Of a stretch of DNA of 64,000 bases, positions 26,079 through 57,651 are shown piece by piece; positions within the stretch are counted from its first letter, which is position 1, and every line of letters starts with the position of its first letter. This DNA is from an uncultured Chloroflexia bacterium (GTDB lineage: Bacteria; Chloroflexota; Limnocylindria; Limnocylindrales; CSP1-4). Both the position numbers and the translations under genes were made by a program. The DNA is taken from the NCBI GenBank assembly GCA_963712745.1, contig CAVQJC010000011.1, positions 320,001 to 384,000 on the forward strand. The letters are read 5' to 3'. Below the pieces are notes generated by a model that was not told the origin of the DNA, searched no databases, and saw only the letters and a list, made by a program, of their open reading frames with translations.

Positions 26079-27792
26079 CGCTAGAACAGGCCGACCGGGC
26101 GTCCCTGCTCGTCGATGTCGACGTTCTCACCGGCAGGACGGCTGGGCAGGCCCGGCATCGTGCGCATGTCGCCCGCGAGCGGGTAGATGAAGCCCGCGCC
26201 CGCGGCCAGCTTGACCTCGCGGATGGGCACCCGGAAGCCGGACGGCCGGCCCAGCAGCGCCGGATCGTGCGACATCGAGAGGTGGGTCTTGGCCATGCAC
26301 ACCGGCAGGTGGCTGTAGCCCAGCCGGTCGTACTCGGCCAGGGCCTTGGCCGCGGCCGGCGCGAGGTCGATGCCGTCGGCCCCATAGACCTTCGTGGCGA
26401 TGGTCTCGATCTTCTCGAGCAGCGGCATCGCGTCGGGGTAGAGCAGCCTGAACTCGGACGGCTCGGACGCCGCCTCCCACACCGCCGCGGCCAGCGCTTC
26501 TGACCCGGCCCCGCCGTCGGCCCAGTGGGTGGTCACGACCGCATCGCGGGCGCCGGCTGCCAGCGCCACCTCGCGGATGACCTCGAACTCCGAGGCGGCG
26601 TCACCCGGGAAGGCGTTGATGGCCACCACCACCGGCACGCCGTACTGGCGCACCAGCTCGATCTGGGCGGCGAGGTTCTGGCCACCCGCGCGCACCGCCT
26701 CGGGGTCCTCCGCCAGCAGCGCCGGGTCGAGCGGCTTGCCGGCCACGATGCGACCCACGCCACCGTGCATCTTCAGGGCCCGCACCGTGGCCACCACCAC
26801 CGCGGCATCGGGCGCCATGCCCGAGGCGCGGCACTTGATGTCGAAGAACTTCTCTGCCCCCATGTCCGCGCCGAAGCCGGCCTCGGTGACGACGATGTCG
26901 CTGGTCGCCAGGGCGACCCGGTCGGCGAGGATGGAGCTGTTGCCATGGGCGATGTTGGCGAAGGGCCCGGCATGGACGAAGGCCGGCCCGCCCTCGAGGG
27001 TCTGCAGCAGGTTGGGCTTGATGGCATCGAGCAGGAGCACGGTCATGGCCCCGGCCACGCCCAGGTCCTCGGTCGTGACCGCTTTCCCCGACCGGTCGGT
27101 GGCGAGCACGATGCGACCCAGCCGCGCGCGCAGGTCGAAGACGTCGGTGGCGAGGGCCAGGATGGCCATGACCTCGCTGGCCACGGTGATGACGAACTCG
27201 CTCTCGCGCGGCACCCCGTTGACCTTGCCGCCGAGGCCGATGTTGACCTTGCGCAGGGCGCGGTCGCTGATGTCGACCACCCGCGGCCAGGTGATCGAAT
27301 AGGGGTCGATGTCGAGCGGATCGCCATGGTGGAGGCTGTTGTCGAGGAAGGCGCTCGCGAGGTTGTGCGCGGCGCCGATGGCGTGCACGTCACCGGTGAG
27401 GTGGAGGTTGAAGTCCTCCATGGGGATGATCTGCGAATAGCCGCCGCCGGCGGCCCCGCCCTTGATGCCGAAGACCGGGCCCAGCGAGGGCTGGCGGATG
27501 GCGACCGCGGCCGTGTGGCCGATGCGGTTGAGACCCTGCACCACACCGACGGTGGTGGTGGTCTTGCCCTCGCCCAGCGGGGTCGGCGTGATGGCGGTCA
27601 TGACCACGTACCGGCCGCGCGGGTTCTCGCGCTCGACACGTCTGAGCCCCTCGAGCGTGACCTTGGCCTTGGTCGCGCCGTAGGGTTCGATCTCATCGGG
27701 CCGCAGCCCGAGCTCGGCAGCGATGTCGGTGATGGGCCGGGGGGTGACCGAGCGGGCGATGTCGAGGTCGGTCAGGGCGGTCATGGATGGTC
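26079..27792. repeat. About 1.71-kb direct repeat, copy 1 (partner 55938..57651, offset 29,859 bp)
   Basis: The Fhs proteins and the off-frame ORF translations are identical between copies; identity ends 8 nt upstream of the ATG and 2 nt past the stop. Confidence 0.95.
26081..27784 (-). CDS. fhs: Formate-tetrahydrofolate ligase, copy 1
   Basis: TPTPLGEGKTT, GIKGGAAGGGY, HAGPFANIAHG, VATVRALKMHGG and TMPGL motifs. Confidence 0.98.
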   Translation of the reverse strand: MTALTDLDIARSVTPRPITDIAAELGLRPDEIEPYGATKAKVTLEGLRRVERENPRGRYVVMTAITPTPLGEGKTTTTVGVVQGLNRIGHTAAVAIRQPSLGPVFGIKGGAAGGGYSQIIPMEDFNLHLTGDVHAIGAAHNLASAFLDNSLHHGDPLDIDPYSITWPRVVDISDRALRKVNIGLGGKVNGVPRESEFVITVASEVMAILALATDVFDLRARLGRIVLATDRSGKAVTTEDLGVAGAMTVLLLDAIKPNLLQTLEGGPAFVHAGPFANIAHGNSSILADRVALATSDIVVTEAGFGADMGAEKFFDIKCRASGMAPDAAVVVATVRALKMHGGVGRIVAGKPLDPALLAEDPEAVRAGGQNLAAQIELVRQYGVPVVVAINAFPGDAASEFEVIREVALAAGARDAVVTTHWADGGAGSEALAAAVWEAASEPSEFRLLYPDAMPLLEKIETIATKVYGADGIDLAPAAAKALAEYDRLGYSHLPVCMAKTHLSMSHDPALLGRPSGFRVPIREVKLAAGAGFIYPLAGDMRTMPGLPSRPAGENVDIDEQGRPVGLF

Positions 27793-27821
27793 GTCCTCCT
27801 CGTCGTGTGATGGCGCCGGGC

Positions 27822-30614
27822 CTATGGGCCCGTCACCTTCGTGCTCACCGGCTTGTCATCACCATCGAGCTCGGCGGTGACGGACTCTGGCGGAGCAGCC
27901 GCCTTGGTGACCCGGGCAGCACACACCTTGTACTCCGCGGTCCGGGTGACGTCGTCGAAGACGTCGTTCGTGATGCGGTTCGTGGGCTGGTCGACGAAGT
28001 GGAATGGCATCCACAGCGCTCCGGGTCGGGTGCGTCGACCGACCTTGGCCCGCACTGTCACCTCCCCGCGGCGGGTCGCCACGGTGACGGCGTCAGCATC
28101 GGCCACGCCCAGCTCGGCGGCGTCATGCTCGTGCATCTCGACGAAGTTGCGACGCTGCTTCTGGCGGATCGCTCCTACCTTCTGAGTCATGTTCCCGATG
28201 TTGTAGTTGTAGAGCGTCCGCCCGGTGGAGAGGATGTATGGGTACTCGTCGTCAGGCAGCTCCGCCGCGGGCCGGAAGCCGATCTCGTGGAATGCTCCGA
28301 GGCCCCGGGTGAAGGTGCCTTCATGGAGGAACGGTGTCCCGGCATGGTCGGCGGTCGGGCAGGGCCACTGCAGGCCGACCTCGTCGATGCGCTCGTAGCT
28401 CATGCCGGCGTAGCTCGGGGTCAAGCTCGCCATCTCATCGAAGATCTCGCCGGCGTGCCCGTATGACATGGGGTAGCCCATCGCCGTCGACATGAGGCAG
28501 AGGATCTCCCAGTCCGGCTTCGCCTGGCCCGGCGGGTCGACGGCCTTGCGTACCCGCTGCACCCGCCGCTCGGTGTTGGTGAACGTCCCGTCCTTCTCGG
28601 CGAAGCTGGTCGCCGGGAAGACCACATCAGCCAACTTCGCGGTCTCGGTCATGAAGATCTCCTGGCACACCAGGAAGTCCAGTCTCTCGAGGTCGGCGAT
28701 GACCTTCGCCTGATTGGGCTCCGACAGCACGGGATCCTCGCCGAACACGTAGAAGCCTCGCAGCACACCGTCGCCTGCGGCCTCGATGAAGTCAGGGATG
28801 CGGCCGCCTCTGTTGGTGGGAATCTCCACGCCCCACGCCTCTGCGAACTTGAGCCGCGCCACCTCGTCGGTGACCTTCTGGTAGCCGGGGAAGTCGCCGT
28901 GCATGGCGCCCATGTCACAGCCGCCCTGCACGTTGTTCTGCCCTCGCAGCGGGTTCACGCCGCTGGAAGGCTTGCCGATCTGGCCACACAGCATCGCTAG
29001 GTTCGCCAGGTTCTGCACGTTCTCGGTGCCGCAGGTGTGCTCGGTGATGCCGAGCGTGTAGAAGATGGCCGAGGGCTGTCCTTGTGCGTACGTCTCGGCG
29101 GCCCGCCTGATCAGATCGGCATCGACGTCGCACACCCTGGCCGCCTGCTCGACGCTATAGCCGTCGAGGTTGCCGCGGAAGGCGTCGAAGCCCTCGCAGC
29201 GGGACGCGATGAACTCGACGTCGTGCAGGCCCCGGTCGAGGATGTGGCGCATCATCGCGTTGACCAGCATGTTGTCGGTGCCGGGCTTGTGCTGGATGTG
29301 GATGGCGGCGTGCTCGGCCACCCAGGTGCGGCGCGGGTCACACACGATCATCTTCGCCCCGCGCTTGAGTGCCTTCTTCATCTCGAGACCGATGATGGGA
29401 TGCGCCTCGGTCGGATTCGACCCGATGATGAGCATCGTGTCGACATCCTTGATCTCGCCGATGGGATTGGTCATCGCCCCCGACCCGAACGAGCTGGCCA
29501 GCCCGGCCACGGACGGGGCGTGGCAGGTGGTGGCGCATTGGTCGACGTTGTTGGTAGCGCCGGCGGATCGGGCCATCTTCTGCAGGAGGTAGTTCTCCTC
29601 GTTGGTGCAGCGGCACGAGCTGAGGAAGGCCACGGCGTCCGGGCCATGTTCCCGGCGGATCTCCCGCAGCCGCCGGCCCGCCAGCTTCAGTGCCTCATCC
29701 CAGCTCGCTTCACGGAACTCACCGTTCTCCTTGATGAGCGGCGTCGTCAGCCGCTCGGGTGAGTGGATGTATTCGAACCCGAACTTGCCCTTGACGCATA
29801 GGTTGCCGTCGTTGGGCACACAGCCGACCGGGGAGGTCACCCGCACGACACGGTTGGCCGACCTGTCGACATTCAGGTCCAGGACGCAGCCGACGCCACA
29901 GTACGGGCAGACCGTGCGAACCGACTCGAGGTCCTTGCACTGACCCTTGCCCAGCGCTGCCCGCTCGTACATGGCCCCGGTCGGGCAGGTCGAGATGCAC
30001 ATGCCGCAGAGCACGCACGAGGTGTCATTCAAGGCCATGTCGAACGGCGTAGTCACCGCCGCCTGCGCGGCTCTCTGCGTGAACGTCAGCGCGCTGGCCA
30101 TCACCACCTCGTCACAGATGCGCACGCAGCGGCCGCAAGTGATGCACAGCTGAGGGTCGAAGGCGATGGCTTCGTTGCCGGTGGTGAAGTTCGGGACGGC
30201 CGGATCTGGCTGGTACGATCCGAATGCGAACTGGTCGACCCCGTAGCGGTACGCGTAGTCCATCAGGGCGCACTCGCCGTTCTTGTCACACGTGGGGCAG
30301 CTGACCCGGTGGTCGCCGAGTATCAGCTCCAGCACCGACTCGCGCATCGACGCCAGTTCGTCGCTCTCGGTGCGAATGACCATGCCCTCCTCGATCTGGG
30401 TGGTACATGCCGTCGGCAGGCCGGGGTGACCATCGACCTCCACGATGCACAGCCGGCACGCCCCCACCGGCTTCAGTCGGGGATCGAAGCACAGGCGGGG
30501 TACGTCGATGCCGGCCGCAAGGGCGGCTTCCAGCACCGTCTCGCCTTCGGCGGCAGAGACCGGCTGGCCGTCGATGGTGAGGGTCACCGTACCCGGCGCT
30601 GTCGCTACGGCCAT
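27822..30614 (-). CDS. fdhA: Mo/W-bis-PGD formate dehydrogenase alpha subunit (Cys ligand) with N-terminal 2Fe-2S/4Fe-4S domains
   Basis: GACRLC, CITCGRC, CVLCGMCISTCP, CPYCGVGC, TCHAPS, LRGQNNVQG and FTNTERRVQ motifs. Confidence 0.95.
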   Translation of the reverse strand: MAVATAPGTVTLTIDGQPVSAAEGETVLEAALAAGIDVPRLCFDPRLKPVGACRLCIVEVDGHPGLPTACTTQIEEGMVIRTESDELASMRESVLELILGDHRVSCPTCDKNGECALMDYAYRYGVDQFAFGSYQPDPAVPNFTTGNEAIAFDPQLCITCGRCVRICDEVVMASALTFTQRAAQAAVTTPFDMALNDTSCVLCGMCISTCPTGAMYERAALGKGQCKDLESVRTVCPYCGVGCVLDLNVDRSANRVVRVTSPVGCVPNDGNLCVKGKFGFEYIHSPERLTTPLIKENGEFREASWDEALKLAGRRLREIRREHGPDAVAFLSSCRCTNEENYLLQKMARSAGATNNVDQCATTCHAPSVAGLASSFGSGAMTNPIGEIKDVDTMLIIGSNPTEAHPIIGLEMKKALKRGAKMIVCDPRRTWVAEHAAIHIQHKPGTDNMLVNAMMRHILDRGLHDVEFIASRCEGFDAFRGNLDGYSVEQAARVCDVDADLIRRAAETYAQGQPSAIFYTLGITEHTCGTENVQNLANLAMLCGQIGKPSSGVNPLRGQNNVQGGCDMGAMHGDFPGYQKVTDEVARLKFAEAWGVEIPTNRGGRIPDFIEAAGDGVLRGFYVFGEDPVLSEPNQAKVIADLERLDFLVCQEIFMTETAKLADVVFPATSFAEKDGTFTNTERRVQRVRKAVDPPGQAKPDWEILCLMSTAMGYPMSYGHAGEIFDEMASLTPSYAGMSYERIDEVGLQWPCPTADHAGTPFLHEGTFTRGLGAFHEIGFRPAAELPDDEYPYILSTGRTLYNYNIGNMTQKVGAIRQKQRRNFVEMHEHDAAELGVADADAVTVATRRGEVTVRAKVGRRTRPGALWMPFHFVDQPTNRITNDVFDDVTRTAEYKVCAARVTKAAAPPESVTAELDGDDKPVSTKVTGP

Positions 30615-32315
30615 CTATGCCTGACCTCCCGCCAGCGCAGGCTCGCGCGGACCCAGCGCCTTGCAGACCCCAGCCGGACAGGTCCCCTCGACCACGTGCG
30701 CCAGGTATTCGTCGCGGAAGTGGCGCAGCGTAGAGAGCACCGGGTTGGGCGCGGTCTGCCCCAGGCCGCACAGTGACGTGCGGCGTACCACGTCGCTGAG
30801 CTGTTCCAGCCTGTCCAGGTCGGCGGCCGTGCCCTCGCCACCGCAGATGCGGTCGAGGATCTCCTGCAGTCGCACCGTACCCAATCGACACGGCGCGCAA
30901 AGCCCACAGCTCTCGGCAGCGCAGAAGCTGATGAAGTAGCGGGCGATGTCCACGATGCAGGTCGTGTCGTCCATCACGATCATGCCGCCGGATCCCATGA
31001 TCGCCCCGACCTCGCGCAGCGAGTCGTAGTCGATGGGCAGGTCGAGATGGGCTGCCGGCACGCAGCCGCCTGAGGGCCCGCCCATCTGCACCGCCTTGAA
31101 CTCCCGGTCGCGGGGCAGGCCGCCACCGACCCCGAACACGATGTCGCGGATCGTCGCCCCCATCGGCACCTCCACCAGGCCGGTGTTCTTCACCTGGCCC
31201 GCGAGGGCGAAGATCTTGGTGCCCTTCGACCCTTGCGTCCCGCGCTCGGCGAAGGCGGCGCCGCCTTCGGCCACGATCAGCGGGATGTTCGCGAACGTCT
31301 CGACGTTGTTGATGATCGTCGGCTGGCCCAGGTAGCCCCTCGCTGCGGGGTACGGCGGCTTGGGTCGGGCGATGCCTCGATGTCCCTCCAGCGAGGCGAT
31401 CATGGCAGTCTCCTCACCGCACACGAACGCCCCGGCGCCCTCACGCACCTCGATGTCCAGCGAGAACCCACTGCCCAGGATGTCGTCGCCCAGCAGACCC
31501 CATTCTCTCGCCTGGTCGATGGCCAGCCGCACGTGATGCACGGCGATGGGATACTCGGCCCGGACGTAGATGAAGCCCCTGGTGGCCCCGACTGCGAAGG
31601 CGGCGATGATCATGCCCTCGATGACGCTGTGCGGGTCGCCCTCCAGCAGGGCCCGATCCATGAAGGCGCCCGGGTCACCCTCGTCGGCGTTGCAGATGAG
31701 GTACCGATCCCCGGCGAAGAAGCGCTTGCAGATCTCCCACTTGAGCCCGGTCGGGAAGCCACCACCACCGCGGCCGCGGATGGCGCTCGCCTTCACCTCC
31801 TCGACGACCTCATCGGGCTGCATATCGAGGAAGGCCTTGGCGGCTGCCTGGTAGACGTCGCGCCCGATGGCGTCTTCGATGCGCTGCGGATCGACCCGGC
31901 CGACGTTGCGCAGCACCCGCTTGGTCTGGTGCTGGTAGAAGGGGATGTCATGCATGTGCGCCATGGTCTCGTCGCGCTCGTAGCACAAGCGGGCGACGAC
32001 CTCGCCTTTCTGCACGGTCTGGGAGATGACGTCGGGCACGAACTTCACCCGGTTGCGGCCGTAGAGGACATCGCCGGGTTCGATGACGGCTACTGGGGCC
32101 ATGGCGCACAGGCCGTGGCAGCCAGTGGCGACGATGTCGACCTCCTCTTCAAGGCCGGCGAGAGCGACCTCCTCTCGGAACGCCGCCTCGATCTCCCGGG
32201 CTCCGATGGCGAGGCATCCGGTGGAGCACACCAGCACCCGCTTCCTTCCCTCCGCGGCAGCGACCAGCCTGTCGCGGAGCGCGGTCAGCTCGTCCGAAGA
32301 CCCGATCCTGGTCAT
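30615..32315 (-). CDS. nuoF: NuoF/HylB-like NAD(H)- and FMN-binding subunit of the formate dehydrogenase complex
   Basis: N-terminal thioredoxin-like 2Fe-2S domain (CSTGC..GCHGLC), GRGGGGFPTG, NADEGDPGAFMD, GAFVCGEET, GGPSGG and ESCGLCAPCR. ATG 32315 overlaps the nuoE stop. Confidence 0.93.
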   Translation of the reverse strand: MTRIGSSDELTALRDRLVAAAEGRKRVLVCSTGCLAIGAREIEAAFREEVALAGLEEEVDIVATGCHGLCAMAPVAVIEPGDVLYGRNRVKFVPDVISQTVQKGEVVARLCYERDETMAHMHDIPFYQHQTKRVLRNVGRVDPQRIEDAIGRDVYQAAAKAFLDMQPDEVVEEVKASAIRGRGGGGFPTGLKWEICKRFFAGDRYLICNADEGDPGAFMDRALLEGDPHSVIEGMIIAAFAVGATRGFIYVRAEYPIAVHHVRLAIDQAREWGLLGDDILGSGFSLDIEVREGAGAFVCGEETAMIASLEGHRGIARPKPPYPAARGYLGQPTIINNVETFANIPLIVAEGGAAFAERGTQGSKGTKIFALAGQVKNTGLVEVPMGATIRDIVFGVGGGLPRDREFKAVQMGGPSGGCVPAAHLDLPIDYDSLREVGAIMGSGGMIVMDDTTCIVDIARYFISFCAAESCGLCAPCRLGTVRLQEILDRICGGEGTAADLDRLEQLSDVVRRTSLCGLGQTAPNPVLSTLRHFRDEYLAHVVEGTCPAGVCKALGPREPALAGGQA

Positions 32316-32794
32316 CGGTACCGCTCCAGGATCCCCGTGACCTTGTCCGCGGTCACGCTGCCGAAGTAGTCGTGGCCGATCATCACTACCGGCGCCAGGA
32401 AGCATGTGCCCAGGCAGGCCACGGTCTCGATGCCGTAGCGGCCATCTTCGGTGATCTCCCCTTCGTGGATGCCAAGGCGAGACTCCACGGCATCCTGGAT
32501 CGCTTGGCGGCCCCGCACGTGGCAAGCCGTACCACGGCACACCCGGACGGTATTGCGGGCGTGTGGCTCGAGATAGAACTGCGCGTAGAAGGTCGCGACC
32601 CCGTACAGATGGCTGAGTGGGACACCCGCAACGGCGCTCGCCTCGAGCAGCACCTCTTCCGGCAAATAGCCGTAGGTGCCCTGGATCGCCTGGAGCAGCG
32701 GTACGACGTGCCCATGACCGATGGGCGCCATCTCATCGAGGACGCGCCGTGCCGGAGCCAGGTCTACCGTGTCGGCGACCGAAGATCCGACCAT
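32312..32794 (-). CDS. nuoE: NuoE/HylC-like 2Fe-2S subunit
   Basis: GVATFY, VCRGTACH and ACLGTC motifs. The start is estimated; the track ORF extends to 33073. Confidence 0.9.
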   Translation of the reverse strand: MVGSSVADTVDLAPARRVLDEMAPIGHGHVVPLLQAIQGTYGYLPEEVLLEASAVAGVPLSHLYGVATFYAQFYLEPHARNTVRVCRGTACHVRGRQAIQDAVESRLGIHEGEITEDGRYGIETVACLGTCFLAPVVMIGHDYFGSVTADKVTGILERYR

Positions 32795-33109
32795 CGAGGG
32801 GCAGCGTATCTCGAGGCTCTGACCTCGGGGCGTGGCAAAGGTCCCGAGTCCTCGGGATATGAGGCACCATTCCGCTCGTAGCGTCTGGGAACCAGGGCTG
32901 GATGGGACGCTCCGGTCGACCATCGCGTGGACCCGTCGGAGGTCGACGCCCGCTGCCCGTCGCCACACGAGGGGCAGGTTCGACCGTCGCGCGAGGTGGG
33001 CCGAACGGCCCTGCGATTCGGGCCCGCGCAGCCTAGCCAGCCTAACCGTTTGCCTGACACTCTGGGTCGACAAGCCTTCTGATCAGCGCTCTGCACGAGG
33101 TAGGCTCGG

Positions 33110-33475
33110 ATGGGGTCGTCGACTGAGGCGTCGATGCTCGCTGCGCTCGAGCAGGCCGAGATGGCCGCTCGCGAGCGCCGGCTTGCCGCGTCCAGTGAGG
33201 CGGAGGCGGTCCTGTCCGCAGCGCAGGCGCGTGCGTCTGAGATCGGCGCGAGCGCGGGTCGACGTGTGGACGATGCCCTGGCCGACTTACGCCACTCGGC
33301 GGAAGCTGCGGCTGACGCGGCGATCGTGGATCTCGAACGGGTCGCGGCCAAGCGTGCAGGTGCGAGCACGAGCCGCGCACGGGACGATCGGGTCGTCGGG
33401 AGCGCTGTGGCCATGGTCGTCGCCCGCGTCCTTGGCGAATTGTCCTCCGACCCCGACGACGGGGATCGAGCCTGA
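33110..33475 (+). CDS. A/V-type ATPase peripheral-stalk subunit H/G
   Basis: Ala/Glu/Arg coiled coil; first gene of the operon, coupled to subunit I. Confidence 0.65.
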   Translation: MGSSTEASMLAALEQAEMAARERRLAASSEAEAVLSAAQARASEIGASAGRRVDDALADLRHSAEAAADAAIVDLERVAAKRAGASTSRARDDRVVGSAVAMVVARVLGELSSDPDDGDRA

Positions 33476-35425: not shown

Positions 35426-35437
35426 CCAGAATGCTGG

Positions 35438-35650
35438 ATGAAGGAGCTGCACGAATCGATCGGCGCGGCACTCGCGATCGGGCTGAGCGCGCTGGGAACA
35501 GCCTGGGCTCAGGCCCGCATCGGCGCGGCCGGAGCCGGGGTATTGGCCGAGAAGCCGGAGATGCTCAATAGCATCTTCCTGATCCTGGTGTTGCCGGAGA
35601 CGATCGTCATCCTCGGCTTCGTCGTGGCCGCCATGATCCTGCTCCTGTGA
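35438..35650 (+). CDS. atpK: A/V-type ATPase proteolipid subunit K (c), single hairpin
   Basis: AQARIGAAG..AEKP..LPETIVILGF. Confidence 0.95.
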   Translation: MKELHESIGAALAIGLSALGTAWAQARIGAAGAGVLAEKPEMLNSIFLILVLPETIVILGFVVAAMILLL

Positions 35651-35653
35651 CAG

Positions 35654-36289: not shown

Positions 36290-36292
36290 ACG

Positions 36293-37201: not shown

Positions 37202-37518
37202 TCCTCAGCGCCCCGGGTCAAGCCGACGGCTATCGCCTCGCCGGTTGCTCCACCGTCGTCGCGTCGCCCGGAGCTCAAGCTGCCGCGTCCCTGCGCCACC
37301 TTGCCGCAACCTCTGACATCGGCGTGCTGCTCGTCAGCGCCGACCTCTGGGCGAGCCTCGACGACCGCCTGCGAGGTGACGTCGAGCAGCTGGCCCGACC
37401 GGTGGTCATGCCCATCCCGGAGGGCGAACGCACGCCCGGGGCGGCTCGAGTGCAGCTGCTCGGCGAGATGTTCCAGCGGGCGATCGGCTTTCGCATCCAG
37501 ATCAGCGGCGGAGAATGA
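37186..37518 (+). CDS. atpF: A/V-type ATPase subunit F
   Basis: GYRLAG, P.VM.IP and RAIGF motifs. Confidence 0.88.
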   Translation: MARVVILSAPGQADGYRLAGCSTVVASPGAQAAASLRHLAATSDIGVLLVSADLWASLDDRLRGDVEQLARPVVMPIPEGERTPGAARVQLLGEMFQRAIGFRIQISGGE

Positions 37519-45528: not shown

Positions 45529-45560
45529 GCAGAGGTAGCGCCTGAGGAGAGGCAGGAGAG

Positions 45561-47745: not shown

Positions 47746-47762
47746 GCAAGGAGAGCCACACC

Positions 47763-49121: not shown

Positions 49122-51052
49122 GCGACCAGCTGTGGCCACGCGCGCATGTCACCTTCCTGCCCGATGCGGAGACAGCGGATGTAGAGCCAGGCACGACGCT
49201 CTTGGATGCGGCCGTCGCCTCCGGCCTGCCCCTGGACGGGGAATGCGGCGGACAGGGCATCTGTCACCGCTGCGCGGTGACCGTGTTGGGTGGCCATGTC
49301 GAGGCCTTGGAGGGCGGTCCCCCGAGCATCGTCAACGACCGTGTCCTGGCGTGCCGCACGGTCGTCCGTGGGGACGTCACAGTGGACGTGCCGCCGACCT
49401 CGCGCATCGAAGGACTGGAGATCCTCACTGGTGCCGATCGAGCCGCCGGGATCCTGGCTGCGTCCGGCGAACTGCCCGAAGTCCCCGCACTCGACTTCGA
49501 GGACTACCCGCTCGACCCGCTCGCGGTGGCCCTGCCGATGACCCTGCCGCGACCGACCATCGACGATGCGTCGAGTGACCTGGGGCTGCTCCGCCGCGAG
49601 CTGCGCCGCGATCACGGCATCGGCGAGCTGGCCGTCCCGCTGTCGGTGCTGCGCAGGCTGCCACATCGGATCCGGGCCTCGGGCCGGCTGGTCACGGCGG
49701 TCCTGGCGCGTTGCGACGGGAACCACGAGCTCTTGGACCTGATGGTCGGGCGCGAGGGCCATCCCATCTTCGGCCTGGCCGTGGATATCGGCACGACCAC
49801 GGTCGTGGTCCACCTCGTCGATCTGGCCTCGGGCAAGAGCGTCGGTGTCGCCGCGGCCCTCAACAGCCAGGTGGCCCACGGCGAGGACGTCATCACGCGC
49901 ATCATCCACGCTGGCGAGCCCGGAGGCCTTGACCAGCTCCGCTCCGGCATCGTCGACGAGATCAACGTGCTCGTGGGCAGCCTGGCCCTGGCGCACCACG
50001 TGAACCGCCACGAGATCGTCGCTGCGGTCGTGGCTGGAAACACCACGATGATCCACCTCTTCCTGGGCCTGCCGCCGGCCGAGATCCGACGTGAGCCCTA
50101 CGTCCCGGTGGCCACGGCGCCGCTCATCTACCACGCCGGCGACATCGGCCTGCGCATCCATGCTCGCGCCGTGGTCGCCTGCATGCCCGGCAGCGGCAGC
50201 TACGTGGGCGGCGACATCAGCGCGGACGTGCTCGCCTCCGGCATGGACCGGCGGCCGGAGCTGGCCATGCTCATCGACGCGGGCACCAACGGCGAGACGG
50301 TCATCGGAAACCGCGACTTCCTCGTCTGTTGTGCCTGTTCGGCCGGACCTGCCTTCGAGGGTGGCGGGACGTCATGCGGCATGCGCGCGGCACAGGGTGC
50401 CATCTCCCACTTCGAGCTGGCCCCCGGCGGGAGCCTCGCCTACCAGACCATCGGCGGGGTGCCGCCGCGCGGCATCTGCGGCTCGGGCCTCGTCGAGCTG
50501 CTGGCCGAGCTGCTCCGCGCTGGTGTGCTCGATCGCTCGGGTCGTCTGCGAGCCGGTGCTCACGCCGTCCGCGACGGCGAGGCCGGGTTGGAGGCGCTCG
50601 TGGCCCCGGGGCCCGACACGGCGACAGGAGAGGACATCGTCCTGTCCGAGACCGACCTCGAGACTCTCCTGCGCTCCAAGGCGGCGGTATACGCGGGAGC
50701 CTCGGTCCTGGTCCGCCGGCTGGGTATCGATATGGCTGAGATCGAGCGCATCTACGTGGCCGGTGGTTTCGGCACCTCGCTCGACGTCGAGAAGGCCATG
50801 CTCATCGGACTGCTACCCGACGTGCCTGTCGAGCGCGTGACCTTCATCGGCAACGGATCGGTGACCGGGGCGCGCATGGCACTCCTCTCCCGCGAGGCCT
50901 GGCGGCGGGCGGCCGACGTGGCCGAGATGATGACGTATCGCGATCTCTCCGCCGACGGCTCCTTCATGGACGAGTACGTGGGGGCGCTGTTCCTGCCACA
51001 CACCGACAGCGACCGGTTCCCGCGAGCGCACGCCGCGCTCGGGATCGGATGA
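49088..51052 (+). CDS. acsV: Reductive activator of corrinoid proteins (RACo, 2Fe-2S + ASKHA ATPase)
   Basis: CGGQGIC.RC..C, DIGTTT, GEDVITRI, D.GTNGE, SAGPAFEG and GICGSG. The start is uncertain (49088 to about 49150). Confidence 0.93.
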   Translation: MAPAGAGRQQLSDQLWPRAHVTFLPDAETADVEPGTTLLDAAVASGLPLDGECGGQGICHRCAVTVLGGHVEALEGGPPSIVNDRVLACRTVVRGDVTVDVPPTSRIEGLEILTGADRAAGILAASGELPEVPALDFEDYPLDPLAVALPMTLPRPTIDDASSDLGLLRRELRRDHGIGELAVPLSVLRRLPHRIRASGRLVTAVLARCDGNHELLDLMVGREGHPIFGLAVDIGTTTVVVHLVDLASGKSVGVAAALNSQVAHGEDVITRIIHAGEPGGLDQLRSGIVDEINVLVGSLALAHHVNRHEIVAAVVAGNTTMIHLFLGLPPAEIRREPYVPVATAPLIYHAGDIGLRIHARAVVACMPGSGSYVGGDISADVLASGMDRRPELAMLIDAGTNGETVIGNRDFLVCCACSAGPAFEGGGTSCGMRAAQGAISHFELAPGGSLAYQTIGGVPPRGICGSGLVELLAELLRAGVLDRSGRLRAGAHAVRDGEAGLEALVAPGPDTATGEDIVLSETDLETLLRSKAAVYAGASVLVRRLGIDMAEIERIYVAGGFGTSLDVEKAMLIGLLPDVPVERVTFIGNGSVTGARMALLSREAWRRAADVAEMMTYRDLSADGSFMDEYVGALFLPHTDSDRFPRAHAALGIG

Positions 51053-51062
51053 GGAGGATGGG

Positions 51063-51824
51063 ATGGCCCGAGTGATCGCACTGGCAGGCAAGGGAGGCAC
51101 CGGCAAGACGACCATCGCCGGGCTCATCGTGCGGGCACTGCGCCGGAACGGTCACGGTCCGGTCCTGGCTGTCGACGCCGATCCCAACAGCTGCCTCGAC
51201 GTGGCCATCGGCCTCACCGCGGACAAGACCGTGTCGGACGTGCTCGACCAGACGCGCGGCTTGCGGGACGTGCCCGGGAACATGCCCAAGCCGACGTACG
51301 TCGAGTACCAGCTCGAGCACTGCCTGGCGGAGGGTCGTGGCGTGGACCTCATCGTCATGGGCCGCCCCGAGGGAGCCGAGTGCTACTGCTCGGCCAACCA
51401 GATGCTGCGCACGTTCCTGGACCGCATGATCGACAGCTACCCCACCGTGGTCGTGGACAACGAGGCAGGCATGGAGCACCTCAGCCGGCGGACGACCCGG
51501 GACGTCGACCTGCTGTTGGTCGTCAGTGACGCCACGCTGGCCGGTGCCCGGGCCTCGCGTCGCATCGCCGATCTGGTGGGCGAGCTCGAGCTGCCCGTCA
51601 AACGCATCGCCGTCGTCGTCGACGGAGCTGAGGAGCTGGCCGATCCCGTGGCCGAGATCCTGACCGACGACGGCCTGCGACTGGCCGGCTTCGTGCCCCA
51701 CGACCCGCTCATCGTCGAGAGGGAGCTGGCCGCCGCGTCGCTTCTCGAGCTACCTGATGACGCGCCGGCGGTCCAGGCCGTCGAGGAGATGCTGGTCCGA
51801 GAGCTGACAGACGAGCCGTCATGA
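51063..51824 (+). CDS. acsF: Second CooC-type maturation ATPase (AcsF/CooC2)
   Basis: GKGGTGKTT, DADPN, GRPEG..CYC and DNEAGMEHLSR. Confidence 0.9.
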   Translation: MARVIALAGKGGTGKTTIAGLIVRALRRNGHGPVLAVDADPNSCLDVAIGLTADKTVSDVLDQTRGLRDVPGNMPKPTYVEYQLEHCLAEGRGVDLIVMGRPEGAECYCSANQMLRTFLDRMIDSYPTVVVDNEAGMEHLSRRTTRDVDLLLVVSDATLAGARASRRIADLVGELELPVKRIAVVVDGAEELADPVAEILTDDGLRLAGFVPHDPLIVERELAAASLLELPDDAPAVQAVEEMLVRELTDEPS

Positions 51825-52432
51825 CGACCTACGGCCCCGCGATCGAGCGGCTCGTCGATGAGCTGGGCCGGCACGACCACGACGAGCTGGTGGAGCGGAG
51901 CGGTGCCGGTTCGCCGGCTCCGGATCGCATCGCCGTTCGCTGCCTGGGCCAGGACTACCTGATCACCTACCCCGAGGGTGAGGTATCGACCGCCTCCGGT
52001 GAGCCGGTAGACGAGCATCTTGCCATCCTCCTCCTGCTCTATCTCACCGAGGCCGGCGGCCGTCTGCTTGAGGGTCGCTGGATCGCTTTCGAGCAGATAT
52101 CGGGAGGTGCCGGCTACGTCGGCTCGTTCCGTGGTCGCGTCATGGGTCCGCTCCTGCGTACCTTCGGCCAGCGGCCCGAGGCGCTCCGGCAGGCCGCGGC
52201 AGGGCTGGACGGCTCGTCACTGGACATGGGTGACGCCGCCGTGGCCCTCGCGGCGCTCCCCCGGGTGCCCATCGCCTTCGTCCTCTGGCGCGGCGACGAC
52301 GAATTCGCACCGAGCGCATCGGTGGTCTTTGACGCCTCGGTGGAAGGCTACCTCGATGCCGAGGCCGTGACCGTCCTCGCCGAGCTGGCTACCCGTCGCA
52401 TGATCGAGGCCGCAGGGAGCGGCACCAGTTAG
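51821..52432 (+). CDS. DUF3786-family protein
   Basis: ILLLLYL..A, W..F....GG..Y..F, LPRVP....W.GDDEF motifs; a family often found in acs clusters. Confidence 0.8.
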   Translation: MTTYGPAIERLVDELGRHDHDELVERSGAGSPAPDRIAVRCLGQDYLITYPEGEVSTASGEPVDEHLAILLLLYLTEAGGRLLEGRWIAFEQISGGAGYVGSFRGRVMGPLLRTFGQRPEALRQAAAGLDGSSLDMGDAAVALAALPRVPIAFVLWRGDDEFAPSASVVFDASVEGYLDAEAVTVLAELATRRMIEAAGSGTS

Positions 52433-52443
52433 GGAGGACTCGC

Positions 52444-53415
52444 ATGACCGTCGAGCTGATGCACGAGACCTGGCCAGGTGTGATCGGCACCGTCACCATC
52501 GGCGCCACGCCCGACGATGGCGGTACCCGCGGATCCACCGTCACGGTGGGCGGGCATGCCGCGCTGCCCTTCCGAGACGAGGATGCCCCCAGTCTCCATC
52601 CACCCGTGGTCGCACTCCAGGTCTTCGATAGAGAACCGGACTGGCCGGATCATCTGAAGGGACCACTGGCCGACGTGCTCGGCTCGCCGGCCGATTGGGC
52701 GCGTATGGGCGTGGAGACGCTGGGCGTCGACCTTGTCTTCCTGCGGCTCATGTCGGTCCATCCCGAATGGGGCGCCGGGTCCGTCGACGACGCGGTCAGC
52801 ACGGTGCGCTCGGTGCTGGAAGCCGTCGACGTACCCCTCATCATCGCGGGCTGTGGCGACGCCGATGCGGACAACGACCTCTGGCCGCGTGTCACCGAGG
52901 CGACCCGGGGCGAGAACTGCCTGGTGGGTGTGGGAGATCCCGACAACTACAAGACGCTGGTGGTCGCCTGCATGGCCGACGGGCACAGCGTCCTCGCCTA
53001 CGCGCCGATCGACGTCAACATCCAGAAGCAACTGACGATCTTGATGACCGAGATGGGACTGCCAGCGGAGCGCATCGTCATGTTTCCCGGCGACGCCTCG
53101 CTCGGCTACGGCATCGAGTACGAGTACTCGATCATGGAGCGTATCCGCCTCGCTGCGCTGCAGGGCGACGCGATGCTGTCACGGCCGGTCATCGCCGTGG
53201 TCGGTGAACAGGCCTGGAAGGCCAAGGAGGCTCGCCTCGCCGAGGACGAAATGCCCGAGTGGGGCGACGCTTCGAAGCGCGGCCCTGCGTGGGAGGCGGC
53301 CACGGCCGCCCTGTACCTGCAGTCGGGGGCGGACATCGTGGCCCTGCTCCACCCGGACGCGGTCAGGAGCACCCAGCGAACCATCGCCGAGCTGGTCGGG
53401 ACACCGGCCGAATAG
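52444..53415 (+). CDS. acsD: Corrinoid Fe-S protein small (delta) subunit
   Basis: VTVGG..ALPF, PIDVN..KQL, LGYGIEY.YS.MERIRLAAL.GD and W.AKEA motifs. Confidence 0.96.
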   Translation: MTVELMHETWPGVIGTVTIGATPDDGGTRGSTVTVGGHAALPFRDEDAPSLHPPVVALQVFDREPDWPDHLKGPLADVLGSPADWARMGVETLGVDLVFLRLMSVHPEWGAGSVDDAVSTVRSVLEAVDVPLIIAGCGDADADNDLWPRVTEATRGENCLVGVGDPDNYKTLVVACMADGHSVLAYAPIDVNIQKQLTILMTEMGLPAERIVMFPGDASLGYGIEYEYSIMERIRLAALQGDAMLSRPVIAVVGEQAWKAKEARLAEDEMPEWGDASKRGPAWEAATAALYLQSGADIVALLHPDAVRSTQRTIAELVGTPAE

Positions 53416-53426
53416 GGGGGAATGCC

Positions 53427-54239
53427 ATGTTCATCATCGGAGAACGCATCAACGGCATGTTCAAGGTGGTGGCCAAGGCCATCGCCGAGCATGACGCCGA
53501 GACGATCGCGGACCTGGCCCGGCGACAGGTGGCGGCCGGCGCGCGGGCGCTTGACATCAACACCGGCCCCACCGAGGGCGATCCGGTCGAGGTCATGCGC
53601 TGGCTGGTCGAGACCGTCGAGGACGCCGTGGAGGTTCCCGTGGCCATCGACACGCCCAAGCAGGCCGTGCTGGAGTCGGGCCTGAAGGCCGCCCGCCGGC
53701 CGCCCATCATCAACTCCACGACCGGGGCCAAGGAGCGGCTCGACGCCCAGTTGCCCCTGGCCGTGGAGTACAACGCCGGCCTCATCGGCTTGAGCATCGA
53801 CGAGCGGGGTATCCCGCGCAACGCGGAGGCACGGGCGGAGATCGCCCTGACCATCGTCGCTCGCGCTATGGAGGCCGGCCTGCCGACCGACCGGCTCTAC
53901 CTCGATCCCATCGTGCTGCCCGTCAGCGCAGCACAGGATCAGTGCGCTGCCGCGCTCACGGCCATCGGGACCTTCCGCCAGCTGAGCGATCCGCCCCCCA
54001 ACATCGTCATCGGCCTGAGCAACGTCTCGCAGGGAGCGGTGGACCGCAGCCTGGTCAACCGCACCTACCTGGTGATGGCCATGGCCATGGGCGTCAACGC
54101 GGCCATCCTCGACCCCTTCGATCGTGAGCTCATGGCTGCCCAGCGGACAGCCGGCCTCCTGCTCAATCAGGAGATCTACGCGGAGAACTACCTCGAGACG
54201 ACGAGCCCCGCGCTCGCCACCGCCAGCCGTGCTGGCTGA
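53427..54239 (+). CDS. acsE: Methyl-THF:corrinoid Fe-S protein methyltransferase
   Basis: MFIIGERINGMF, LDIN.GP, IINST and GLSNVSQ; ATG at 53427. Confidence 0.95.
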   Translation: MFIIGERINGMFKVVAKAIAEHDAETIADLARRQVAAGARALDINTGPTEGDPVEVMRWLVETVEDAVEVPVAIDTPKQAVLESGLKAARRPPIINSTTGAKERLDAQLPLAVEYNAGLIGLSIDERGIPRNAEARAEIALTIVARAMEAGLPTDRLYLDPIVLPVSAAQDQCAAALTAIGTFRQLSDPPPNIVIGLSNVSQGAVDRSLVNRTYLVMAMAMGVNAAILDPFDRELMAAQRTAGLLLNQEIYAENYLETTSPALATASRAG

Positions 54240-54314
54240 GCGCGTACGTGCTGGAAGCCGTGCCCGGGTGGGGCAGTGCCGGCGACCTTCGCCGCAGGCG
54301 TGTGAGGTGAGGAG

Positions 54315-55943
54315 ATGACGATGGCTACGATCACTGCCCGACCGTCACTGCGGGAACGGATGGCGGACCCCGATACCTTCCTGACCATCGTCGAGCTGGT
54401 GCCCTGGCGAGGCGTGCTCGACGACGACCTTGGCCGTCGTGCGCGCACTGCAGCCGAGTCGCTGGCCGGTGACCCCGCCATCGACGCCATCAGCGTCACC
54501 GACAACGCCGGTGGCCATGCCATGGCCAGCCCGGACGTGCTCGGTCACGAGATCGCGGCACGCGGCAGTGAGGCCATCGTGCATGTCGCCTGCCGCGACC
54601 GCAACCGCAACGAGCTTCTGAGCATCGGCTGGCGGTTGGCTTCCGAGGGTCTGAACAACCTGCTCGTGCTCTCGGGCGACTACCCCACCGAGGGCTACCA
54701 CGGCCTGGCTCAGCCGGTCTTCGACATCGACTCGGTGGTGCTCCTGCAGATGTACTCCGAGGTGGCGCGGGGTCAGTCTCCCATCGAAGACGTCCGCGGC
54801 CAGGGCGGAGGCGCGAGCGATATCGGGTGCCGCCCATTGCCGCTCTTCCTGGGCGCCGTCGTCAGCCCCTTCAAGCGCTTCGAACGAGAACTGGTTCCGC
54901 AGTATCAGAAACTCGAGCTGAAGATCCGTTCGGGCGCGGAGTTCATCATCGGCCAGGTCGGCTACGACGCGCGGCGGCAGGCCGAGCTGCTTCAGTGGAT
55001 GACACTGCGCGGCTTGGAACGGCCGGTCCTGTCCAACATCTACCTGCTCACTCGGACGGTGGCGCGTATCTTCCACGCCGGCAAGGTCCCCGGCGTGTCA
55101 CTGACCGATGAGCTCCTCGAGCTCTGTGAGAAGCAGGGCAGCAGCCCGGACAAGGGCAAGTCCTTCTTCCGGGAGTTCGCGGCCAAGCAGGTGGCGATCG
55201 CACGTGGGCTGGGGTGTGCGGGCGCCTACCTGGGCGGCATCACCCGAGCCGAGGACGTGGGTGCCATCCGTGAGCTTGCTGATAGCTTCGGGCCCGAAGA
55301 CTGGCACGCCTTCGCCCGTGAGATCCAGTTCTCGCCAGCCGACCAGTTCGAGCTCCTGGAGACCGATCCCCGGACCGGCTTGCCAACGGACAGGCTGGAC
55401 CCGGCATACGCCCGATCACTCGAGCTGACGGCGCGTCGAGCCGCACGGCGCCACGTGCCCTGGACGTACAAGGTCAACCGCCTCGCTCACGACGCGGTCT
55501 TCGATCCCGAGGCCGTGCTATACCCTGCGGCCGGTCGCTTCTATTCGGCCGCCGAGCGCTGGCGCCTGGGCTGGCCGCTCCACGTCTTCGAGCAGGCCGT
55601 GAAGATCCCGCTGTACGACTGTCGCGACTGCGGCGACTGCTCGTTGCCGGACGTGGCGTATCTCTGCCCCGAGTCGCACTGCTCCAAGAACCAGCGCAAC
55701 GGGCCCTGTGGCGGCTCGCATGATGGCGAATGCGAGGTCGCCGGGAAGTCATGCGTGTGGGCGCAAGCCTACGATCGTCTCAAGCCATACGGAGAGGAGG
55801 ACGCCATCCTCCACCGTCCGATCGTCGTGGCCGACAACGCGCTGCGCCGGACGAGCGCGTGGGCCAATACATTCCTCGGCCGTGACCATGCGGCCGAGGA
55901 CGGCGTTGCGGCGTCCCAGCCAATGCGGGCAGCTGCTCGCTAG
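54315..55943 (+). CDS. metF: Methylene-THF reductase, MetF fused to a C-terminal MetV-like Cys-rich domain (copy 1)
   Basis: TDNAGG, HVACRDRN, LSGDY and KIRSGA; C-terminal C..CGDC...CP..C.K..RNGPCGG...CE...C.W. Confidence 0.9.
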   Translation: MTMATITARPSLRERMADPDTFLTIVELVPWRGVLDDDLGRRARTAAESLAGDPAIDAISVTDNAGGHAMASPDVLGHEIAARGSEAIVHVACRDRNRNELLSIGWRLASEGLNNLLVLSGDYPTEGYHGLAQPVFDIDSVVLLQMYSEVARGQSPIEDVRGQGGGASDIGCRPLPLFLGAVVSPFKRFERELVPQYQKLELKIRSGAEFIIGQVGYDARRQAELLQWMTLRGLERPVLSNIYLLTRTVARIFHAGKVPGVSLTDELLELCEKQGSSPDKGKSFFREFAAKQVAIARGLGCAGAYLGGITRAEDVGAIRELADSFGPEDWHAFAREIQFSPADQFELLETDPRTGLPTDRLDPAYARSLELTARRAARRHVPWTYKVNRLAHDAVFDPEAVLYPAAGRFYSAAERWRLGWPLHVFEQAVKIPLYDCRDCGDCSLPDVAYLCPESHCSKNQRNGPCGGSHDGECEVAGKSCVWAQAYDRLKPYGEEDAILHRPIVVADNALRRTSAWANTFLGRDHAAEDGVAASQPMRAAAR

Positions 55944-57651
55944 AACAGGCCGACCGGGCGTCCCTGCTCGTCGATGTCGACGTTCTCACCGGCAGGACGG
56001 CTGGGCAGGCCCGGCATCGTGCGCATGTCGCCCGCGAGCGGGTAGATGAAGCCCGCGCCCGCGGCCAGCTTGACCTCGCGGATGGGCACCCGGAAGCCGG
56101 ACGGCCGGCCCAGCAGCGCCGGATCGTGCGACATCGAGAGGTGGGTCTTGGCCATGCACACCGGCAGGTGGCTGTAGCCCAGCCGGTCGTACTCGGCCAG
56201 GGCCTTGGCCGCGGCCGGCGCGAGGTCGATGCCGTCGGCCCCATAGACCTTCGTGGCGATGGTCTCGATCTTCTCGAGCAGCGGCATCGCGTCGGGGTAG
56301 AGCAGCCTGAACTCGGACGGCTCGGACGCCGCCTCCCACACCGCCGCGGCCAGCGCTTCTGACCCGGCCCCGCCGTCGGCCCAGTGGGTGGTCACGACCG
56401 CATCGCGGGCGCCGGCTGCCAGCGCCACCTCGCGGATGACCTCGAACTCCGAGGCGGCGTCACCCGGGAAGGCGTTGATGGCCACCACCACCGGCACGCC
56501 GTACTGGCGCACCAGCTCGATCTGGGCGGCGAGGTTCTGGCCACCCGCGCGCACCGCCTCGGGGTCCTCCGCCAGCAGCGCCGGGTCGAGCGGCTTGCCG
56601 GCCACGATGCGACCCACGCCACCGTGCATCTTCAGGGCCCGCACCGTGGCCACCACCACCGCGGCATCGGGCGCCATGCCCGAGGCGCGGCACTTGATGT
56701 CGAAGAACTTCTCTGCCCCCATGTCCGCGCCGAAGCCGGCCTCGGTGACGACGATGTCGCTGGTCGCCAGGGCGACCCGGTCGGCGAGGATGGAGCTGTT
56801 GCCATGGGCGATGTTGGCGAAGGGCCCGGCATGGACGAAGGCCGGCCCGCCCTCGAGGGTCTGCAGCAGGTTGGGCTTGATGGCATCGAGCAGGAGCACG
56901 GTCATGGCCCCGGCCACGCCCAGGTCCTCGGTCGTGACCGCTTTCCCCGACCGGTCGGTGGCGAGCACGATGCGACCCAGCCGCGCGCGCAGGTCGAAGA
57001 CGTCGGTGGCGAGGGCCAGGATGGCCATGACCTCGCTGGCCACGGTGATGACGAACTCGCTCTCGCGCGGCACCCCGTTGACCTTGCCGCCGAGGCCGAT
57101 GTTGACCTTGCGCAGGGCGCGGTCGCTGATGTCGACCACCCGCGGCCAGGTGATCGAATAGGGGTCGATGTCGAGCGGATCGCCATGGTGGAGGCTGTTG
57201 TCGAGGAAGGCGCTCGCGAGGTTGTGCGCGGCGCCGATGGCGTGCACGTCACCGGTGAGGTGGAGGTTGAAGTCCTCCATGGGGATGATCTGCGAATAGC
57301 CGCCGCCGGCGGCCCCGCCCTTGATGCCGAAGACCGGGCCCAGCGAGGGCTGGCGGATGGCGACCGCGGCCGTGTGGCCGATGCGGTTGAGACCCTGCAC
57401 CACACCGACGGTGGTGGTGGTCTTGCCCTCGCCCAGCGGGGTCGGCGTGATGGCGGTCATGACCACGTACCGGCCGCGCGGGTTCTCGCGCTCGACACGT
57501 CTGAGCCCCTCGAGCGTGACCTTGGCCTTGGTCGCGCCGTAGGGTTCGATCTCATCGGGCCGCAGCCCGAGCTCGGCAGCGATGTCGGTGATGGGCCGGG
57601 GGGTGACCGAGCGGGCGATGTCGAGGTCGGTCAGGGCGGTCATGGATGGTC
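55938..57651. repeat. About 1.71-kb direct repeat, copy 2
   Basis: See 26079..27792. Confidence 0.95.
55940..57643 (-). CDS. fhs: Formate-tetrahydrofolate ligase, copy 2 (identical protein to copy 1)
   Basis: Same motifs and sequence as 26081..27784; its stop shares a CTAG with the convergent metF stop. Confidence 0.98.
   Translation of the reverse strand: MTALTDLDIARSVTPRPITDIAAELGLRPDEIEPYGATKAKVTLEGLRRVERENPRGRYVVMTAITPTPLGEGKTTTTVGVVQGLNRIGHTAAVAIRQPSLGPVFGIKGGAAGGGYSQIIPMEDFNLHLTGDVHAIGAAHNLASAFLDNSLHHGDPLDIDPYSITWPRVVDISDRALRKVNIGLGGKVNGVPRESEFVITVASEVMAILALATDVFDLRARLGRIVLATDRSGKAVTTEDLGVAGAMTVLLLDAIKPNLLQTLEGGPAFVHAGPFANIAHGNSSILADRVALATSDIVVTEAGFGADMGAEKFFDIKCRASGMAPDAAVVVATVRALKMHGGVGRIVAGKPLDPALLAEDPEAVRAGGQNLAAQIELVRQYGVPVVVAINAFPGDAASEFEVIREVALAAGARDAVVTTHWADGGAGSEALAAAVWEAASEPSEFRLLYPDAMPLLEKIETIATKVYGADGIDLAPAAAKALAEYDRLGYSHLPVCMAKTHLSMSHDPALLGRPSGFRVPIREVKLAAGAGFIYPLAGDMRTMPGLPSRPAGENVDIDEQGRPVGLF

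Follow-up and report, generated by a model that had tools for sequence, protein, structure and literature searches.

The window examined here, a stretch of 64,000 nucleotides (68.8% GC, no N) from contig CAVQJC010000011.1 of an uncultured Chloroflexia bacterium, carries two fhs genes on its minus strand which bracket a complete set of Wood-Ljungdahl genes together with an A/V-type ATPase operon. The first copy, fhs1, occupies positions 26079..27792 (coding sequence (CDS) 26081-27784) and the second, fhs2, positions 55938..57651 (CDS 55940-57643), and each encodes a protein of 567 amino acids (aa). Both open reading frames (ORFs) match the Pfam family FTHFS over profile positions 2-556 of 556 (E 1e-249) and pass the NCBIfam fhs equivalog NF010030 with 783 bits against a cut-off of 652. 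A first-pass annotation, made from the letters of this DNA, had described the copies as nucleotide-identical direct repeats at a distance of 29,859 bp, whose identity ends within about 8 nt of the CDS. A direct comparison bears this out: the blocks have the same orientation and an offset of 29,859 bp, align with 0 mismatches (1714/1714 nt), and consist of the fhs CDS, 8 nt ahead of its ATG and 2 nt behind its stop, outside of which identity collapses at once. The same pair was recovered separately as family D3 in an independent repeat search of the window. An exact repeat of 1.7 kb cannot be due to chance. In local alignments of the 120-nt flanks, the upstream flanks of fhs1 and fhs2 are no more alike than shuffled sequence (their score is reached in 128 of 300 shuffles), nor are the downstream flanks (68 of 300), and this comparison revealed no residual duplicated flank around fhs1. 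The ribosome-binding regions, each lying just outside the identical block, differ between the copies, and fhs1 has its own GGAGGA upstream. With 0 differences in 1714 nt, the rule of three places the divergence of the copies below ~0.18%, roughly one-hundredth of the 13.5% that separates them from the fhs of L001, a contig representing the closest relative among the matches listed; hence the last homogenisation or copying would have been very recent.

Each fhs closes a sensible operon. The first copy follows nuoE-nuoF-fdhA in a formate dehydrogenase (FDH) operon on the minus strand (27822..33073), identified with Pfam and NCBIfam, which comprises a NuoE-like gene (~32312-33073), a NuoF-like gene with an N-terminal 2Fe-2S region (30615-~32540) and fdhA (27822-30614, 930 aa). 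FdhA scores 825 bits with the NCBIfam model TIGR01591 Fdh-alpha (cut-off 666), and the nuoF_fam and NuoE models match its neighbours. On the same strand, 405 nt downstream of fhs1, lies a gene for a 318-aa protein (24719..25675) in which half of an MtaA/URO-D domain is fused to a B12-binding corrinoid domain (Pfam URO-D and B12-binding; UroD/B12 hereafter); NCBIfam models for MtbC/MtgC corrinoid proteins and mtaA_cmuA also match it, all below their cut-offs. The second copy closes a methyl-transfer/methyl-oxidation locus on the minus strand (57668..64000, Pfam and NCBIfam), where it follows metFV2-MT2-folD. Read from the copy outwards, this locus contains FolD (57668-58561), a pterin-binding methyltransferase (MT2, 58586-59623), a MetF-MetV fusion (MetFV2, 59620-61164) and two MtaA/URO-D-like genes, UroD2 (61283-62522, with a frameshift near 62207) and UroD3 (63119 to beyond 64000, with a frameshift near 63898). 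A scan of positions 24500-34500 returned 0 sigma-70 promoters and 0 intrinsic terminators, no more than in shuffled sequence, such a scan being uninformative in a GC-rich genome.

The genes enclosed by the two copies, apart from the FDH operon, lie on the plus strand. The A/V-type ATPase operon (33110..41620) was delineated with Pfam, NCBIfam, a PDB sequence search, the ORF listing and frame translations, and comprises a weakly matching H/G-like ORF (33110-33475), subunit I in two frames (33475-~34027, then ~34030-35425), c/K (35438-35650, 70 aa), E (35654-36289), C (36293-37201), F (37186-37518), a fused A-B protein of 1156 aa (37515-40985) and D (40982-41620). Thus, subunits I, c/K, E, C, F, A, B and D of an A/V-type ATP synthase were all found, with I split and A and B fused. 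The c/K subunit consists of a single hairpin with a P-E-T motif in its second helix. In the fusion, A spans approximately residues 1-600 and B approximately residues 686-1156, with an acidic, proline-rich linker of ~80 aa between them. A 720-aa database fragment that is 79% identical (P0122) matches the fusion in a single alignment that crosses the A-B junction, although its linker differs in length, and on this ground the fusion looks real and conserved rather than an error. The other database matches of the fusion (~900-1140 aa) align in two stretches and are presumably intein-bearing A subunits. Between atpD and cooC, approximately 1 kb (41621-42628) holds 5 candidate ORFs with no significant family match (best E 0.063, for one of them); it may be the control region of the genes that follow.

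Those genes form the carbon monoxide dehydrogenase/acetyl-CoA synthase (CODH/ACS) cluster (42629..54239, Pfam and NCBIfam), in the order CooC (42629-43567), AcsA (43564-45528), AcsB (45561-47742, with a frameshift near 47437), AcsC (47763-49121), RACo (49088-51052), a second CooC (51063-51824), DUF3786 (51821-52432), AcsD (52444-53415) and AcsE (~53400-54239). A first MetF-MetV fusion, MetFV1 (54315..55943, 542 aa, Pfam MTHFR and DUF5981), is convergent on fhs2: the CTAG palindrome at 55940-55943 gives both genes their stop codon, fhs2 on the minus and MetFV1 on the plus strand, so that the two genes overlap by 4 nt and the MetFV1 stop codon TAG (55941-55943) falls within the repeat. The window accordingly holds a complete Wood-Ljungdahl set (AcsABCDE, two CooC, RACo, MetF-MetV, FolD, Fhs and FdhA-NuoEF), acsB being frameshifted as sequenced. 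The Pfam and NCBIfam searches thus uphold the enclosed content as first described, namely FdhA-NuoF-NuoE, a whole A/V-ATPase operon, the CODH/ACS cluster and MetF-MetV, while the description of individual genes has to be corrected, since acsB and atpI contain frameshifts and a single ORF comprises both atpA and atpB. The coordinates likewise agree with the earlier statement that removing the enclosed segment in silico (27793-57651) leaves one minus-strand locus, UroD-UroD-MetFV2-MT2-FolD-Fhs-UroD/B12.

Frameshifts and the state of the assembly

Four conserved genes of the window are interrupted by frameshifts. Residues 1-628 of AcsB are in frame and 94% identical to its relative P0001, and the last 100 residues are encoded in another frame (47413-47742); the break near 47437 was judged against relatives of 727 aa, and its site is not a homopolymer. 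This frameshift may be an error or may mark a pseudogene. In atpI a frame switch near 34027 was deduced from the reading frames, with no homologue aligned: the ORF at 34166-35425 matches positions 221-638 of 646 of the NCBIfam subunit I profile, and the ORF at 33475-34101 has, by its reading frame, a typical subunit I N-terminus, with no family match for that piece. The other two frameshifts lie outside the enclosed segment and split UroD2 (~62207) and UroD3 (~63898), each with an extra G beside a short C run, and both ORFs are intact in L001 (3491-4747 and 2174-3487, respectively). Decay of the enclosed segment was considered as the cause of the acsB and atpI frameshifts and set aside, two further frameshifts being present in core genes that are intact in L001. 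For this same reason assembly indels are the simpler reading, and all four frameshifts resemble indels introduced in a long-read assembly more than they do decay.

These errors bear on whether the fhs pair is itself an artefact of assembly, that is, whether near-identical copies were given one consensus written twice, or a repeat path was wrongly resolved, the true arrangement being folD-fhs-UroD/B12 with the remainder joined elsewhere. Frameshifts in four conserved genes do point to an indel-prone assembly, and the integrated and excised arrangements would use the same edges of the assembly graph. However, such indel errors point to long reads, and these normally cover a 1.7-kb repeat together with its flanks; a long-read assembly would explain how the exact repeat was spanned here. 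Moreover, both junctions join complete genes in sensible operons, and a collapsed consensus would still need two very similar copies, so that the biology would barely change. Hence, we regard an artefact as an unlikely source of the pair.

The locus in relatives and the nature of the enclosed segment

To place the locus we scanned one genome per species with the Fhs protein and used the 80 loci listed, among which the window's own genome does not appear. The closest of the matches listed, L001, is a 17,238-bp contig of a Candidatus Limnocylindrales metagenome-assembled genome (MAG) whose Fhs is 91% identical to that of the window; the next five (L002-L006) are Limnocylindrales or "Chloroflexia" MAGs with Fhs identities of 73-76%. 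Each of these six genomes shows one fhs locus among the matches listed, and in 6/6 folD lies directly upstream of fhs, the folD-fhs pair being all that L002-L006 share with the window. L001 is collinear with the minus strand of the window over UroD3, UroD2, FolD, Fhs, hyp14422, TelA, VWA, hyp11003, DeoR, E1a and E1b, and the shared blocks are 82-88% identical at the nucleotide level (blastn). To judge from these identities L001 is a different species-level lineage, not a sister cell or a fresh excision product, and the organism of the window is, by the same sequence comparison, a relative of Ca. Limnocylindrales. The upstream flank of fhs2 is orthologous to the folD-fhs spacer of L001 (score 76, reached by 0 of 300 shuffles). 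Given the folD-fhs adjacency in all six relatives, fhs2 is the positionally ancestral copy.

The blastn comparison and the junction sequences further show that positions 15235..55939, a stretch of 40.7 kb, have no counterpart at the orthologous site of L001. Followed along the minus strand, this stretch begins directly behind the fhs2 stop and reaches to ~25 nt upstream of hyp14422, and it holds two AAA_16 regulators, a 554-aa ORF, UroD/B12, fhs1 and the whole enclosed module; fhs1 thus lies within a variable segment. A second difference of 2.7 kb on the minus strand (58564..61281) comprises MetFV2 and the pterin-binding methyltransferase, in place of which the UroD2 stop of L001 overlaps the FolD start (TGATG, at 4742-4747). 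Since a close relative is without all of the module at the same site, the locus is a hot spot of gene-content change. In L001, one relative from another species-level lineage, fhs is followed by hyp14422 and not by UroD/B12, so that an exact one-repeat empty site is not what is seen; its form is therefore not the product of a crossover between two fhs copies, which would leave fhs followed by UroD/B12. The linkage of fhs to FDH genes is not peculiar to the window: fhs near nuoF-fdhA is also found in L007 (Anaerolineales) and L078 (Thauera), 2 of the 39 multi-gene loci listed, which makes it a recurring arrangement.

The fhs alleles themselves were compared along their length. Identity between the window fhs and that of L001 averages 86.5% (nucleotides) and, taken in 21 windows of 150 nt, never leaves the range of 81-93%, with no mosaic. 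A chimeric fhs was rejected on this evenness, and both copies are, by this alignment, the resident Limnocylindrales allele over their full length, vertically inherited. A crossover with a foreign fhs is correspondingly disfavoured because a chimera would have remained.

The first-pass annotation had regarded the enclosed genes as a cassette that upgraded a methyl-transfer locus into a full pathway, and had suggested comparing GC and codon usage inside and outside. No difference emerged from that comparison. GC is 68.4% inside as against 69.1% and 68.5% outside and stays at 0.65-0.73 in every 2-kb bin, GC at third codon positions (GC3) inside matches the flanks, 235 of 500 random permutations of the gene labels give a codon-usage distance as large as that between 14 core and 20 module genes, and tetranucleotide frequencies correlate between regions with r 0.97-0.99. 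The GC values agree with the mean for the class Ca. Limnocylindria, given as 68.9% in PMC10608941. The relatives of AcsB, among the 120 listed, form a continuous series from 94% down to 74% identity (P0001-P0066), four of which have the NCBI name Chloroflexota (87%, 82%) or Candidatus Limnocylindr- (82%); Armatimonadota appear at 77-78% and the next group at ~66%. We therefore rejected a foreign origin for the module, which resembles its flanks in GC, GC3, codon usage and tetranucleotides and whose AcsB is lineage-typical rather than that of a foreign upgrade.

Landmarks of mobility were likewise absent. The earlier statement that there is no integrase held, in that no integrase, transposase or relaxase domain was found in the 49 ORFs scanned with Pfam and no integrase or recombinase in the extra ORFs scanned; the largest gaps of the window without an assigned gene are ~1.0, 0.7, 0.4 and 0.4 kb. 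The window has 0 tRNA genes as a tRNA/tmRNA target and 0 Rfam matches (riboswitches or other RNA landmarks), and no short attachment (att) repeats were seen on reading the junction sequences of the 40.7-kb stretch. AcsB matches just 1 of 72,556 PLSDB records, one of 2.6 Mb. Taken together, the enclosed 28 kb (FDH, A-type ATPase, CODH/ACS and MetFV) is most likely ordinary chromosome of the lineage and not a discrete mobile element.

These observations weigh on the history initially proposed, in which the 29.9-kb unit entered a folD-fhs-UroD/B12 operon as a circle by a single crossover in fhs and can leave or amplify without an integrase. Long, perfect direct repeats do bracket the unit, as in Campbell-type integration, but the fhs is unmosaic and of the resident type, so that the incoming fhs must already have been identical. 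L001 is without the module at this locus, as the model expects, but its site reads fhs-hyp14422, the difference there is 40.7 kb with fhs1 inside rather than the 29.9-kb unit, a second difference of 2.7 kb lies in the same operon, and at 82-88% nucleotide identity L001 is too distant to be a fresh excision product. Neither an integrase domain nor a tRNA is present, in line with an integrase-free entry, while the composition is native, AcsB is typical of the lineage, the presumed circle would have no replication or transfer genes recognisable with Pfam, and the single PLSDB record with AcsB is 2.6 Mb long. The model is also favoured by the fact that pop-out would bring the corrinoid-protein gene back together with its methyltransferases in a single restored minus-strand operon, and by the stop codon that the repeat supplies to MetFV1, as a recombination joint at a gene end could; against this, if the enclosed ATPase is the sole ATP synthase of the cell, loss of the unit would be strongly counter-selected. 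Of the original interpretation the repeats, the gene content, the lack of an integrase and a module-less relative thus stand, whereas the L001 gap, composition, AcsB, allele and operon contexts do not support integration at fhs, which we consider improbable. Still less probable is the stronger version, in which the unit is a recombinase-free, RecA-driven metabolic switch that is deleted and amplified in the population and recombines into module-less relatives via fhs. If it did hold, a housekeeping gene would serve as the attachment site through which an entire module for carbon fixation and energy moves and changes its copy number.

How the fhs copies came to be identical

Given the above, the two copies are most likely operon-specific fhs genes homogenised by gene conversion, or else one is a very recent copy of the resident gene. 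The other paralogous genes on either side of the repeat were compared as well. MetFV1 and MetFV2 are 48% identical in aa sequence, AcsE and MT2 29%, and the URO-D-like genes 29-36%; these pairs are old, and therefore the module is not a recent copy of the outer locus and fhs alone was homogenised. The fhs pair displays two traits of concerted evolution: the copies are 100% alike within the genome as against 86.5% to the L001 orthologue, and the likeness is confined to fhs, with unrelated flanks. Identity that ends at the gene edges agrees with conversion, since gene conversion extends only as far as homology. Unrelated contexts, likeness limited to the gene and an allele of resident type together are the typical mark of conversion between paralogs. 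That each fhs ends a sensible operon with its own ribosome-binding region is what one would expect of two working paralogs.

The proposed course of events may be outlined as follows. The copy fhs2 would end a methyl-transfer/methyl-oxidation operon (two MtaA-like proteins, MetFV2, a pterin methyltransferase, FolD and Fhs), retaining the ancestral folD-fhs pairing, and fhs1 would end an FDH operon (NuoE, NuoF, FdhA and Fhs) in which FDH formate is turned into formyl-tetrahydrofolate for the adjoining Wood-Ljungdahl genes. Homologous recombination would then have copied one fhs CDS over the other. Perfect direct repeats of 1.7 kb are substrates for RecA-dependent deletion and tandem amplification, and such deletion or tandem amplification of the 29.9-kb unit is, under any of the histories considered, a likely occasional by-product of the repeats. 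Conversion would accordingly be the presumed mechanism, and deletion or amplification a presumed consequence. The survival of such variants might depend on selection, for example if the enclosed ATPase were the sole ATP synthase.

Several points weigh against this account. The relatives compared, the six closest among the matches listed, show a single fhs position each, and the one close relative among them, L001, is a MAG contig of 12.6x coverage. The four frameshifts of the window indicate imperfect sequence quality. Conversion needs homology in which to start and resolve, so that a very recent copy would account no less well for copies that are identical right to their terminal codons. Repeats that are perfect, direct and 30 kb apart should be lost by deletion readily, and therefore a long coexistence needs selection for the enclosed genes. 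Finally, the corrinoid-protein gene after fhs1 suits methyl transfer better than an FDH operon, which favours entry of the module at fhs. With these points set against the evidence above, we regard two working operon-specific fhs genes homogenised by conversion as an evenly balanced proposition.

A recent duplication of the resident fhs, without DNA from outside, would explain the perfect identity up to the gene edges equally well. It could have proceeded by tandem duplication of fhs with the module, after which the second module copy was deleted, or by some other illegitimate copying of the gene to a place behind fdhA, where the copy might have been kept because it coupled fhs to FDH expression. 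The 0 differences, the identity to the very edges of the gene and the unmosaic allele of resident type agree with this, and so, weakly, does the single fhs locus of each of the six relatives; on the other hand, two illegitimate joints within 8 nt and 2 nt of the gene ends would be required, and no trace of a duplicated flank is seen. On balance we see such a duplication as a doubtful rival to homogenisation by conversion.

The pair has several implications. As fhs is a standard marker of acetogens, two identical copies in separate operons bear on how genes are counted in fhs surveys. One enzyme would be shared between the reductive (FDH, CODH/ACS) and oxidative (methyl-group oxidation) flows of one-carbon units. 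With this locus, moreover, a Ca. Limnocylindrales-like member of the Chloroflexota is seen to carry the full Wood-Ljungdahl set along with an A-type ATPase. If deletion and amplification do occur in nature, the repeats would offer populations a simple, testable route by which to vary their autotrophic capacity; if they do not, the fhs pair would be a new case of a metabolic gene evolving in concert.

Comparable systems and further features of the locus

A close analogue of the fhs pair is tufA/tufB of Salmonella and E. coli, likewise a housekeeping gene present twice in unrelated contexts, with the similarity limited to the gene and maintained by conversion. The tuf copies differ at a few sites, whereas the fhs pair has 0 differences in 1714 nt and lies as direct repeats 30 kb apart, where a crossover would delete or amplify the interval; conversion, moreover, is here deduced. 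A second likeness is with amoCAB, hao and psbA, key pathway genes which occur in several near-identical copies in one genome, ascribed to recurrent gene conversion (PMC6053082). That class is defined by recurrence across species, whereas the fhs pair is known from one genome; the words "formate" and "tetrahydrofolate" have 0 occurrences in the main text of that paper, and fhs is apparently not among its 26 genes. Like repeat-flanked amplifiable segments, the locus is a multi-gene interval with perfect direct repeats of kilobase length on both sides. That homologous recombination between direct repeats leads to tandem amplification is well established. The present repeats differ in being a functional metabolic gene instead of insertion sequence elements or rRNA operons, and the case is known from sequence alone.

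The Wood-Ljungdahl clusters of acetogens and other anaerobes similarly have FDH, Fhs, FolD, MetF/MetV, AcsABCDE, CooC and RACo in one neighbourhood. What sets the window apart is that its FDH and ACS genes are separated by an entire A-type ATPase operon, that fhs is present twice and that the host is a Limnocylindrales-like member of the Chloroflexota; in a statement of a 2021 preprint (bioRxiv 10.1101/2021.08.23.457424) the Chloroflexi supergroup outside Dehalococcoidia is said to be without the full pathway. As with integrase-borne islands and integrative and conjugative elements, a large adaptive block has no counterpart at this site in a relative, but the 40.7-kb stretch has neither their integrase, nor a tRNA or att site, nor a deviant composition. 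We found neither published identical fhs duplicates nor a repeat-flanked Wood-Ljungdahl module in open-access papers and preprints, and a search of the same literature gave no paper that connects fhs with gene conversion and duplication. One paper describes two fhs copies that are about 93.9% similar, and the relevant passages of PMC10213532 contain nothing comparable to a Wood-Ljungdahl genomic island.

The part of the 40.7-kb stretch beyond UroD/B12 has features of its own. At 15966-22945 on the plus strand two tandem paralogues of 1163 aa each, with 70% aa identity, contain AAA_16 domains and partially match a kinase/cyclase fusion model. They are followed by the 554-aa ORF (22888-24552), which has no family match; all three genes belong to the stretch that L001 is without. 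Between the divergent hyp14422 and the first AAA_16 gene, ~190 nt inside the left edge of the stretch, positions 15422-15766 form a 92-nt tandem repeat of 3.8 copies with 98% matching. Further to the left, window positions ~8365-11022 are not alignable with L001. Here a 552-aa ORF without a known family (9330-10988) contains a second tandem repeat, at 9504-10146, with a unit of 207 nt present in 3.1 copies that are 99-100% identical.

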